Of a stretch of DNA of 64,000 nt, positions 7,498 through 45,731 are shown piece by piece. The notes under the pieces were generated by a model. That model did no database searches. It saw only the letters and a list, made by a program, of their open reading frames with translations, and was not told where the DNA came from. How positions within the stretch are numbered: position 1 is the stretch's first letter; each line of letters begins with the position of its first letter. The DNA is taken from positions 32,001-96,000 of the IMG/VR virus record IMGVR_UViG_3300030012_002034. One strand, written 5' to 3'. The stretch is from a virus. Position numbers and translations under genes: made by a program.

Positions 7498-8469
7498 TTA
7501 GCTTTTAAACATATCATAATACTTAGAATACATTGCCTTTCTATTTGCTCTATGTATACTTTCTAGCTCTTTAAAGTTAGGCATATTAACTACACTTAAT
7601 GCATTATTTCTAGCAGGTCTTAATTTCTGCTCTATTAATTGCATTCTTTGAGCTACATCTTCTCCATTAATATATAAGTTTTCTAAAATTCTTGATTTAA
7701 TAGCATATTCATAATATTCATTTAATAAAGGATGATCTGGAACAAGTAAGTTGCCATCATGATCCTCCATTGTTCCTTGGTAATTTAAATATACTTTCCC
7801 TGTATTAAAATTTGTACATAAAAATCCATTTTTAATATAACCTTCATTTGTACTACTAATATATAGATTGGGACATTGAGCTTCAATGTTTCTATTAGGC
7901 TTCATTTTTAAAGGTAAGAAATTTCTAGAAACATATGCATTGCCTCCAGCTACAATTTGTATAAGTTCAAACTTATCATTTTTACAATTTGTAAATACTC
8001 TTGGTTTAATACATGTATCTCCAAATACTCCAATTGATTTGTTTAAATCTACATTAGAAGGCAAACATCCCGCAGCTGTATTTTGACAAGGGTTAGAATT
8101 ACAAGCTGAACAGTTTACAGTAGGAGCAGCACATGGATCTGTAGATGCAGGAGTTTCTGTATAAGGAACTTCTTGTATGTTAGTTCCTCCTATATCGTAA
8201 CCTACAGTTTTAATAAAATCTCCACAAATATATGCTAAATTAAAAGTATCAAAATCATCAGGTAACCTAACTTTTCCATGACATACATCTAGTATAACTT
8301 CTTTAGTTTGATTAATTCTTAACCCAAGATCATAATTTACTTTTCTAGCTATTTTAATTAACTGTTGGGGCTCTATCTTATTTTCTAAGGCAAGTCCTGT
8401 CATATCAACTGAAACATCTTCTATAAGCTGATCATAGGTTCTATATTTAAGTGTATAATTGTGATCCAT
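7498..8469 (-). CDS. Tail tubular / ring protein (P22 gp4-like) with Cys-rich insertion
   Basis: VxLPDDF and NFNTGKVYLNY...GNLLVPD motifs; synteny upstream of the muzzle gene. Confidence 0.75.
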   Translation of the reverse strand: MDHNYTLKYRTYDQLIEDVSVDMTGLALENKIEPQQLIKIARKVNYDLGLRINQTKEVILDVCHGKVRLPDDFDTFNLAYICGDFIKTVGYDIGGTNIQEVPYTETPASTDPCAAPTVNCSACNSNPCQNTAAGCLPSNVDLNKSIGVFGDTCIKPRVFTNCKNDKFELIQIVAGGNAYVSRNFLPLKMKPNRNIEAQCPNLYISSTNEGYIKNGFLCTNFNTGKVYLNYQGTMEDHDGNLLVPDHPLLNEYYEYAIKSRILENLYINGEDVAQRMQLIEQKLRPARNNALSVVNMPNFKELESIHRANRKAMYSKYYDMFKS

Positions 8470-31732: not shown

Positions 31733-32010
31733 TATTTTTTCTTAAGCGTTCTTTTTTTTGGCTGAGATTTCGTTTGGGGCTCTTCTTCCATTTCTTCAGG
31801 TGGATTCATCATCATTGCAAACTGCATTTGAATCTGAGCTCTTTTAAATCTCACTTCATCTAGCTTCATAAGAGTCTCTTCATATTTGTGTTGAGCATCT
31901 AAATAAGGAATAGATTCAGTGTAAAAGTCTAGCATTTCTTTTTTCTTTTTTGCTAGTTCTTCTGGAGACATTTGCTCCATTTCTTGTTCTGTTGGTTCTG
32001 CTGTTATCAT
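31732..32010 (-). CDS. Hypothetical coiled-coil protein
   Basis: 92 aa, preceded by TATATTTG promoter box. Confidence 0.7.
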   Translation of the reverse strand: MITAEPTEQEMEQMSPEELAKKKKEMLDFYTESIPYLDAQHKYEETLMKLDEVRFKRAQIQMQFAMMMNPPEEMEEEPQTKSQPKKRTLKKK

Positions 32011-43420: not shown

Positions 43421-43509
43421 TAGTCTATCTATCACTATATACATTACTTATGTAATCTCTTATAGTATCTTATATAGTTTCATAGACTTATTCACCGGAC
43501 TTAAATAAA

Positions 43510-43638: not shown

Positions 43639-43706
43639 ATTTATTCACCGGATTAATTCTATAATGGTTCGCAATTAAATATTTATTAACCATTAAAATT
43701 TTTATT

Positions 43707-43916: not shown

Positions 43917-43979
43917 TAGTCATATGTCATTCACCGGATTAATAGTGTGTCAATAGATTGCACACTGTTATATTATTAT

Positions 43980-44087: not shown

Positions 44088-44243
44088 ATGAAACAAATTA
44101 CGCATTACTTATTTGCTGTACTCTTATTGGGTACACTTACTTCAGTATTTTCTTCCGGAGATTCATTCTCGCTTGGAAAGTCCTTAGTTATTTATGGATT
44201 TTGGGCGCTTATGTTATCTCCTATGACAATTAAAAACGTTTAA
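44088..44243 (+). CDS. 51-aa membrane peptide
   Basis: MKQITHYLFAVLLLGTLTSVFSSGDSFSLGKSLVIYGFWALMLSPMTIKNV. Confidence 0.55.
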   Translation: MKQITHYLFAVLLLGTLTSVFSSGDSFSLGKSLVIYGFWALMLSPMTIKNV

Positions 44244-44248
44244 CTATT

Positions 44249-44371
44249 ATGAAAAAGATTATAATTACTCAAAAAGAAATCCAGGACGCTATGAAACATA
44301 GAGTTCAAAGGAACAAAAAAAAGTATTACCGGAAGGTAAAACACAAAGGTGCTTCTAAAGAGGCACAATGA
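44249..44371 (+). CDS. 40-aa basic ArfA-like peptide
   Basis: MKKIIITQKEIQDAMKHRVQRNKKKYYRKVKHKGASKEAQ; RVxxNKK...YxRKxKH resembles the ArfA core. Confidence 0.55.
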   Translation: MKKIIITQKEIQDAMKHRVQRNKKKYYRKVKHKGASKEAQ

Positions 44372-45219
44372 CATTTGGTGTTTATCTATAGCTTGCTATA
44401 GTATAAGCATCTCATGACCTTATGGTCATGCGGTTGCTCTCAAACCGTTAAGATAAACCAGTAATGGTATAAATCTGTAGTCGTCTTGGTAATAAGACTA
44501 CGGAGATATGTATAGCTTGCTATATGTATTTTATAGAAGAGTATTCCAATATCCATGTAACGGCAGCAATAAATCCCACGGGTTTGTGAGTTGCATGGAG
44601 AGTATGACAGGCATGCTCTTGAGCTTAAAAGGCAATAAGAATTGGGATAGATATTGGTACTATGGTGTTGTCGCACTTAGAGCTGGTATTAGAATTTGTA
44701 TTTAGAATGCTGTAAGAAATTACGTGTTCACATAAATATTTATTTAGTTAGTAGCCTTGACAAGCAAAAGCAGGTAGGAGTAGTAATCTAAACTTCCCAA
44801 AAGGAAGCATGATTACATAAACTCTAAGCGCCTTCTATCACTAACCTGAAACCTTTTTCAGCCATTAGATTGGCAAGTTTAATTTAAATATCAAGTAATA
44901 ACTTAAAAGCAAAATTAGTTTAGAGACTATTGTGATGCCACTAAAGGCAACAATGTTCTTATCCTTCTGCAATATGGAGGCATGGATAGCTCGCAAGGCT
45001 TGCCATGAAGGAATCCAGTAGTATCTGTAGTGAGGGGACACCCTCTTTAGCTCGTAAGGCATGCGGTATGAAAGTGAACTTATGTAAACAATAGTAGTGA
45101 TGGCGGACATCTTAATCCGTGAACATGTACAGTACAAATTAGAAATAGTTTGTGTGAGATAGTTGGAGAAATCCTAATTAATCTGTACGTAAAAGGTCAA
45201 GCTCTCAGCCTTTTTTTTT
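44372..45219 (+). ncRNA. Large (~850 nt) highly structured non-coding RNA (GOLLD/ROOL size class)
   Basis: More than 15 hairpins with GNRA and CUUG tetraloops, nested long-range helices, ends in T9; only short overlapping spurious ORFs. Confidence 0.7.
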
Positions 45220-45266
45220 ATATCAGAACAATTATTAATCAATTAAAGTTAAAGACGCATAAGCTT

Positions 45267-45731
45267 ATGAAAAAAGAATTAGCAATTATTGTAGATGTTG
45301 ACGGGACGTTAGCAGATATGAGAGGTATTAGAGGACCTTTTGAGTGGGACAAAGTTCACCTTGATAGACCCCATCAAGATATTATTGATCTTGTTAAAGA
45401 TTTAGCAGATGCTGGTACAGATATAATGTCAGGTGATGCTTTAGCGGGAACGGAATACAAATATAAAATCATTATTACTACAGGTAGAGATGGTGTTTGT
45501 GAACAAGCAACTAAAAAATGGTTAGATGACCATAAAGTACCTTATTATGATTTCTTTATTAGAAAAGCAGGTGACTTTAGAAAAGATAACATCATTAAGT
45601 CTGAGATCTATATGGATCATATTAGACCTAAGTATGATGTTAAGTATGTTATTGATGACAGAAACCAGGTTGTTGAAATGTGGAGGTCATTAGGTTTACG
45701 GGTGTTACAAGTAGCACCAGGAAATTTTTAA
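45267..45731 (+). CDS. HAD-family polynucleotide 3'-phosphatase (T4 PseT phosphatase-domain-like)
   Basis: DVDGTLAD, TGR, RKD..IK, IDDRNQVVEMWRSLGL..LQVA motifs; start revised to MKKELA. Confidence 0.85.
   Translation: MKKELAIIVDVDGTLADMRGIRGPFEWDKVHLDRPHQDIIDLVKDLADAGTDIMSGDALAGTEYKYKIIITTGRDGVCEQATKKWLDDHKVPYYDFFIRKAGDFRKDNIIKSEIYMDHIRPKYDVKYVIDDRNQVVEMWRSLGLRVLQVAPGNF

Follow-up and report, generated by a model that had tools for sequence, protein, structure and literature searches.

The window analysed here is a stretch of 64,000 nucleotides of viral DNA (positions 32,001 to 96,000 of IMG/VR record IMGVR_UViG_3300030012_002034). Between two tiny ORFs and a phosphatase gene it holds an element of about 850 nucleotides, which an earlier note, made from the sequence alone, had described as a non-coding RNA of the large, ornate kind found in phages, encoded on the + strand of a crAss-like phage. 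Our results support this description in all its parts.

Only three ORFs overlap positions 44372-45219 (78, 65 and 90 aa, on mixed strands), and each of them is broken in 22 of 22 aligned relatives by 1-10 internal stops and/or a frame-breaking change in length. The earlier statement that the stretch has no credible ORF is therefore borne out. One could still take the three ORFs of 65-90 aa as small proteins, or as the remains of a decaying coding sequence, but all three are disrupted in every relative while the nucleotide structure is conserved, and the substitutions are pairwise-compensatory. With no ORF of the three intact in any relative, the protein-coding reading is refuted, and we give it practically no chance.

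As had also been noted, the element is more GC-rich (36.8%) than its 2-kb flanks (30.6-32.7%) or the whole 64-kb window (31.1%), and a run of nine Ts ends it (45211-45219). A comparison with shuffled controls, suggested in the earlier note, gave an MFE z-score of -4.8 for the + strand, which is thus more stable than the controls, and of -4.3 for the - strand. Because these two values lie close together, the sense is not fixed by folding energy alone. The distant mode of blastn found no match to the RNA among 50,697 GenBank phages, and an Rfam scan of the upstream segment 43050-44400 was likewise negative.

GOLLD RNAs are among the largest non-coding RNAs of bacteria and phages, and they form a protein-free 14-mer cage. 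The class reportedly goes back to work by Weinberg and colleagues in 2009. When positions 44200-45350 were compared with all 4227 Rfam families in a permissive cmscan (E up to 10), the GOLLD family RF02032 matched at 44773-45211 (+) from model position 1 to 416 of 416, with 64 bits and an E-value of 5.1e-16. A separate profile search on the source record reproduced the match (E 1.1e-17). The earlier note had called for a scan of this kind and had held that a family match would remove the novelty and confirm the RNA, which is its effect here. Other large RNA families (ROOL, OLE, HEARO, group I or II introns, RNase P or tmRNA) have a negligible claim on the element. ROOL suits the size class and the phage context; however, the permissive scan returned, besides GOLLD, only two chance-level sRNA matches, and ARAGORN found no tRNA or tmRNA gene in the 64-kb window.

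The window RNA does not reach the gathering cut-off of RF02032 (64 versus 150 bits), which is an annotation threshold and not a biological feature, and a gathering-mode Rfam scan of the whole 64-kb window returned no match. Thus, routine annotation overlooks this RNA. Additionally, the match survives the Infernal speed filters only in very small searches. A 99%-identical copy at the related locus L003 was missed by cmscan and profile search in 3 kb, in 61 kb, in three small cut-outs and, among ten records searched, in its whole record. We have therefore set aside negative cmscan results on relatives, as such results reflect the filters and not absence.

The RF02032 model describes only the conserved 3' half of GOLLD. 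In published GOLLDs, ~420 nt of variable 5' sequence precede a conserved 3' region of ~410 nt; they also have an A-rich L14 loop, a linker that varies and a pseudoknot at L27 (10.1101/2024.12.08.627333; PMC12990946). An 850-nt element with an RF02032 match in its 3' half thus has exactly the published layout. In our clade, a less conserved but structured 5' domain of roughly 340-400 nt is joined by a variable linker to a 3' domain of roughly 440 nt, and the GOLLD signatures (the A-rich CAAAAG loop, AAAGCAAAA in the linker, the CGCAAG loop and the terminal UCUCAGCC) are invariant or nearly so.

Homologues were collected and tested for covariation, as the earlier note had advised, and the structure covaries across 23 of them. 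The test alignment, A3, is a MAFFT alignment of 23 homologous sequences that includes the window. RNAalifold, run de novo on A3, predicted 119 pairs, 97 of which carry compensatory double changes. The Rfam consensus structure could be threaded on the window with 91 of 98 model pairs present, 82 of these 91 being canonical. On A3, the same structure left 81.4% of cells paired (41-46% in slid controls), had double changes in 66 of 91 pairs (29-40 when slid) and reached a covariation score of 0.461 (about 0.11 when slid); the observed pairing, double changes and score were reached in 0 of 500 shuffles. Covariation was stronger still for the 5' domain with both pseudoknots (59 RNAalifold pairs plus the pseudoknots): 91.3% of cells in A3 were paired, against 37-43% in slid controls, and 56 of 71 pairs showed compensatory changes.

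Both pseudoknots share in this pattern. Pseudoknot 1 is paired in 89.9% of cells and has compensatory changes in seven of its eight pairs. The first three pairs of pseudoknot 2 are 100% paired on A3; over 36 sequences, its second pair occurs as UA (15), AU (5), CG (1) and GU (1) and its third as GC (11) and AU (9). The register of pseudoknot 2 can also be seen in the Rfam consensus letters, and its counterpart is known from the env-38 GOLLD, where the L27 loop pairs with the linker (10.1101/2024.12.08.627333). These results show that compensatory changes have preserved a secondary structure and two pseudoknots across some 26 lineages, most of them crAss-like phages.

All the helices quoted in the earlier note exist where it had placed them, and many are upheld by covariation. 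This is the case, across the 23 homologues, for the hairpin at 44474-44504 and for the stem at 44552-44599 nested in 44542-44649, as well as for the GNRA-capped stems at 44711-44724, 44981-45007, 45133-45154 and 45163-45177. The long-range helix between 45127-45132 and 45183-45188 is strongly supported. Two small hairpins are present as described, but are not conserved across the clade: 44413-44430 occurs only in the window, L003 and L004, and 44386-44401 only in near relatives. Two further long-range helices had to be given up. The segment 44822-44829 (CTCTAAGC), which had been paired in part (44822-44828) with 44676-44682, pairs with 44918-44925 instead, and the proposed helix between 44835-44843 and 45095-45103 clashes with a covarying helix. 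The suspected pseudoknot at the 3' end exists, but its register was misjudged, as 45155-45159 with 45203-45207 lies 2 nt off the covarying 45156-45159/45201-45204.

Table 1. Features of the RNA and of the adjoining genes (window coordinates). A3 is the alignment of 23 homologues; R1 and R2 are the covariance models described in the text.
Feature	Position	Strand	Remarks
Two small ORFs, 51 and 40 aa	44088-44371	+	Upstream of the RNA; no family match
5' extension, sub-clade specific	44345-44430	+	Aligns with upstream hairpins of near relatives, not with the rest of the clade
Hairpin, 7 bp, UAAA loop	44349-44366	+	Shares sequence with the final codons of the 40-aa ORF
CUUG-loop hairpin	44386-44401	+	Retained in near relatives only
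Hairpin insert	44413-44430	+	Only in the window and the 99%-identical copies L003 and L004
Conserved GOLLD 5' domain	44431-44772	+	Covariation on A3; core model R2 matches
Hairpin	44431-44447	+	5' domain
GAUAAA-flanked GNRA hairpin	44452-44473	+	5' domain
Hairpin	44474-44504	+	5' domain; covariation-supported
Variable hairpin	44506-44529	+	5' domain
Multi-helix core, including UUGAG, hairpin, CAAUAAGAAU	44542-44695	+	5' domain
GAAA-loop hairpin	44711-44724	+	5' domain; covariation-supported
GOLLD 3' domain, roughly P13/P14 to P27	44773-45211	+	RF02032 match, threading, covariation, model R1
A-rich CAAAAG-loop hairpin	44783-44816	+	Inside helix 44773-44781 / 44830-44839
Variable linker (J13/15 equivalent)	44841-44926	+	Length and sequence vary across A3; no embedded tRNA (ARAGORN)
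Optional hairpin	44861-44874	+	Within the linker
Conserved AAAAGCAAAA	44905-44914	+	Within the linker
Junction-closing helix	44927-44934 / 45087-45094	+	3' domain
CGCAAG-loop hairpin	44981-45007	+	3' domain; covariation-supported
Three-way domain	45127-45188	+	3' domain
Pseudoknot 1	44822-44829 with 44918-44925	+	Crosses helix 44773-44781 / 44830-44839
Pseudoknot 2	45156-45159 with 45201-45204	+	Directly after invariant GUGUG; partner is the terminal loop (L27 equivalent)
Terminal hairpin, 12-nt conserved loop, then U9 run	45191-45219	+	Stem covaries: AAGG/CCUU, AGAG/CUCU, GCAG/CUGC
Downstream gene, PNKP-type HAD phosphatase domain	45267-45731	+	PF25109, E 3e-46; phrog_505

The ends of the RNA deserve separate mention. 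The 5' extension can be aligned in L165, L167, L120, L086, L160, L174 and L181. As its first hairpin overlaps the end of the 40-aa ORF and aligns with a hairpin conserved in near relatives, the RNA may start before 44372. The 40-aa ORF, in turn, may not be a gene. The 'ArfA-like' label that it had been given found no match in Pfam or PHROG. At the other end, the terminal hairpin and U9 run form a possible, if atypical, intrinsic terminator or 3' end; a consensus terminator scan made no call there, and the U run is absent from some relatives. Separately, we observed that the CUUGC loops at 44392-44396 and 44516-44520 are complementary to the invariant GCAAG at 44992-44996, in the CGCAAG loop of the 3' domain. 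The complementarity may reflect contact between the loops, or the two CUUGC loops may be no more than stable CUUG tetraloops.

Motif searches found about 40 homologous loci in IMG/VR, which represent 26 lineages at 95% identity; most of the contigs that carry them are crAss-like and about 100 kb long. A motif of the 5' domain (window position 44452) occurs at 38 IMG/VR loci, most of which have the 3' motifs 685-751 nt downstream. Thus, the two halves occur together as a unit. With the motif pair AAAAGCAAAA-N(55-85)-CUCGCAAGG, at least 84 IMG/VR viral loci were retrieved. Eight of these, from isolate prophages, were scored against the GOLLD model, and all eight lie above the gathering cut-off (254-283 bits); nine loci of the window-like clade fall below it. 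A pattern search with the 5' core in IMG/VR returned clade members only. The 5' motif had three matches in the genomes of 185,579 species, which is about the chance expectation, and none of them fits either of the covariance models described below (R1 and R2).

The carriers are related to the window phage over a wide range. Five carrier contigs have terminases 64-72% identical to that of the window phage, and in three more the identity is 25-27%. In the GenBank phage collection, the window terminase matches only crAss-like phages, at about 26% identity, and these relatives support the earlier assignment of the phage. The cultured crAss-like phages phi14:2, Fpv3, FPSV-D24, crAss001 and DAC15 gave no R1 or R2 match, which is weak evidence, as the search was prefiltered. 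A Bacteroides thetaiotaomicron genome that served as a control had a sub-threshold RF02032 match, a hint that Bacteroidota may have more GOLLD-like RNAs that lack annotation.

Some carriers have tRNAs or other features near the RNA. The L169 RNA lies inside an array of 15 tRNAs, L166, L172, L184 and L188 are likewise in or near tRNA arrays, and several carriers have tRNAs within a few kb. ARAGORN called odd tRNA-like genes 20-300 nt from the GOLLD-like RNA at L120:1002-1076, L181:6565-6639 and L165:3656-3728; the calls include 'tRNA-His' with the anticodon ATG at position 30 and one gene with a 4-base anticodon. On the L119 contig, the RNA is followed after about 400 nt by a Pistol ribozyme (L119:1434-1498, +; RF02679), whose 42 bits exceed the gathering score. 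At L183:6821-7777 (-), the gene directly downstream of the RNA encodes a histone-deacetylase-family domain (PF00850, E 3e-23).

To link the clade with certified GOLLDs in the opposite direction, we used two covariance models. Model R1 was built from the window clade only and covers the last (3') 121 nt. It matches eight of eight certified GOLLD loci over its full length and within 7 nt of their 3' ends. The individual scores are weak (22-24 bits, rough E 0.02-0.05), but the evidence is forceful because all eight matches land at the expected position. The intermediate loci L087, L124, L083 and L139 score 40-51 bits with R1 and so bridge the two sets of scores. Model R2, also built from the clade only, represents its 5' core (window 44542-44695). 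It matches L098, L113 and L079 with 24-36 bits, in each case 84-116 nt upstream of a GOLLD match that passes the gathering score (171-223 bits with RF02032); in the window, the corresponding spacing is 78 nt. Against 40 Lactobacillales-type GOLLD loci R2 found no match, as would be expected of a 5' domain that is known to vary. Sequence-only nhmmer profiles of either domain did not reach the Lactobacillales-type GOLLDs. Within the window itself, R1 has a weak full-length match in the structural-gene region (7860-7958, -; 25 bits, rough E 0.014), which is probably due to chance.

These results show that the 5' and 3' domains are both homologous to those of GOLLDs that pass the Rfam threshold. 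The element might instead belong to a new class among the large ornate RNAs, one that came to resemble GOLLD by convergence, through short motifs and GNRA hairpins and not through common descent. The modest Rfam score (64 versus 150 bits), the failure of the clade's nhmmer profiles to reach canonical GOLLDs and the absence of the 5' domain motifs from the 40 Lactobacillales-type loci could be read in this way. However, the covariance model aligns collinearly over its whole length, and 90% of the pairs threaded on the window are canonical; the Rfam structure, which is independent of the clade, covaries within it; the reciprocal models fall at the expected positions in eight of eight (R1) and three of three (R2) certified GOLLDs; and the intermediates bridge the scores. 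We therefore consider convergence very unlikely. The earlier note had left the choice between a divergent GOLLD or ROOL member and a new class. The RF02032 match, the covariation and the reciprocal models decide for a divergent GOLLD member and against a new class. Thus, the window RNA is a sub-threshold lineage of the known GOLLD class and not a new kind of RNA, and the segment from 44372 or 44431 to 45219 (+) is, with high confidence, the gene for a divergent yet full-length GOLLD RNA.

The neighbourhood of the RNA varies among relatives. The earlier note was right about the phosphatase downstream, whose PNKP-type HAD domain matches PF25109. A functional link between RNA and phosphatase is not supported: in relatives, the RNA adjoins other small genes, and in close relatives of the phosphatase gene the corresponding slot is filled by a protein gene or a different spacer. 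Among 68 related loci, the RNA lies beside a phosphatase gene only in L003 and L004, and Pfam showed no common function among ten genes that lie downstream of the RNA in relatives. These findings also bear on the proposal that the element is a long structured 5' leader, a cis-regulator of the phosphatase gene and not an independent RNA. The two are co-oriented, and the RNA ends 48 nt before the start codon. However, unrelated small ORFs come after the RNA in most clade members; phosphatase relatives of 72-86% identity carry the RNA elsewhere on the contig (L008/L077, L009/L085, L011/L180) or have none in this slot; and a hairpin with a U9 run stands between the RNA and the gene. A leader is, in our judgement, a highly improbable explanation.

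Compared with L003, the block that comprises the two tiny ORFs and the RNA (44088-45219) diverges by 0.6-0.8% (the RNA by 0.8%), whereas the flanking segments diverge by 12% (the phosphatase gene) to 62%. This could mean strong constraint or, as the mosaic pattern suggests, a recent exchange of the module. In the closest phosphatase relatives, L002 and L006, the GOLLD slot is taken by an ORF-free gap of 0.7-1.2 kb (L002:2300-3000, L006:1786-2989). R1, run with filters off, found no GOLLD 3' end in L002, L006, L005 or L007. In a weak test, the two gaps also gave no Rfam match, and they might contain some other RNA. Upstream of the RNA, an ORF-poor region contains three copies of ATTCACCGGAYTAA with 0-1 mismatch within 450 nt (43490-43503, 43643-43656 and 43929-43942, +), and elsewhere in the 64-kb window the sequence is matched only at three mismatches. 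These copies may be an early-promoter or operator repeat.

Based on these findings and on what is known of other GOLLDs, we propose a model for the window RNA. It would be transcribed rightward along with the early-region genes, and its 3' end would lie at, or close to, the hairpin and U run that close the element. By homology only, the RNA may then assemble into a protein-free, homo-oligomeric, cage-like particle, as does env-38. If the geometry of env-38 applies, the ring would consist of 3' domains, capped by 5' domains. The role of such a particle would most likely be in phage takeover or RNA handling, where it would sequester tRNA, ribosomes or factors of RNA processing or serve as a scaffold for them; we favour this reading solely because of the association of the class with tRNA arrays.

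A bolder version of the model is that the crAss-type GOLLDs are a sub-family with a function of their own. They would be uncoupled from tRNA arrays, would form a mobile early-region module with the two tiny ORFs and would build a cage of altered stoichiometry that acts at the start of infection. In this version, the change in stoichiometry would come from the additional 5' hairpins and from altered bridge loops, and the cage would not serve tRNA handling but would sequester, for example, ribosomes of the host or factors of RNA-targeting defence or repair. We regard this version as unlikely.

Whatever its function, the diverged GOLLD lineage is found in environmental crAss-like phages both close to and remote from the window phage (terminase identity from 72% down to 25%). 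It extends the class to a major phage group that had no earlier report in the literature searched, which contained no work on GOLLD together with crAssphage and, among the GOLLD and ROOL studies listed, none on crAss-like phages. The published GOLLD census covered GenBank genomes, with cmsearch at E 1e-5. Our results reveal a gap in annotation, as a whole GOLLD sub-family escapes the Rfam model and threshold and is lost by the default filters of Infernal in searches of more than about 1 kb. The roughly 26 new and diverse sequences, with two covariation-supported pseudoknots, provide material for rebuilding the GOLLD family model. They also let one ask which GOLLD features, such as tRNA linkage or bridge loops, are essential.

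Comparison with known systems places the window RNA within the GOLLD class. ROOL (RF03087), which forms an octameric cage, is likewise a large ornate phage-associated RNA of similar size class, but its sequence and fold are unrelated to the window RNA and it gave no match at E up to 10. The best-known relative is env-38, a member of RF02032 from a marine metagenome, whose 14-mer cage was solved by cryo-EM in 2025 (Kretsch et al. 2025, PMC12286853). Both RNAs have about 800-830 nt in two domains with a variable linker. In the 3' domain they have in common helices, an A-rich hairpin loop, CGCAAG-type loops and a terminal UCUCAGCC loop with a pseudoknot. For the 5' domain, a comparison by eye only suggests that GACAG...UUGAG-hairpin-CAAUAAGAAU, GGAUAAA, the GAAA-loop hairpin and CCUGAAACC occur in both. 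Unlike env-38, the window RNA is strongly diverged in sequence (64 bits to the family model), belongs to a crAss-like phage, has extra 5' hairpins (44345-44430) and lacks the tRNA-Met that lies upstream of env-38; the loop that makes the symmetric kissing contact in env-38 has no confidently mapped counterpart.

The GOLLDs of Lactobacillales and prophages (for example L091, L153 and L126; 254-283 bits) have the same 3'-domain fold as the window RNA, the AAAAGCAAAA and CUCGCAAGG signatures in common with the window clade, and R1 matches at the correct position. They differ in that their 5' domains have no detectable similarity to those of the window clade, they usually adjoin tRNAs, whereas the window has none, and they pass the Rfam gathering score, which the window clade does not. 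The environmental GOLLDs L098, L113 and L079 from IMG/VR stand closer to the clade. They have both the 3' domain and the 5' core in common with it, at similar spacing, and their 3' domain is nearer to the Rfam seed than that of the window clade.
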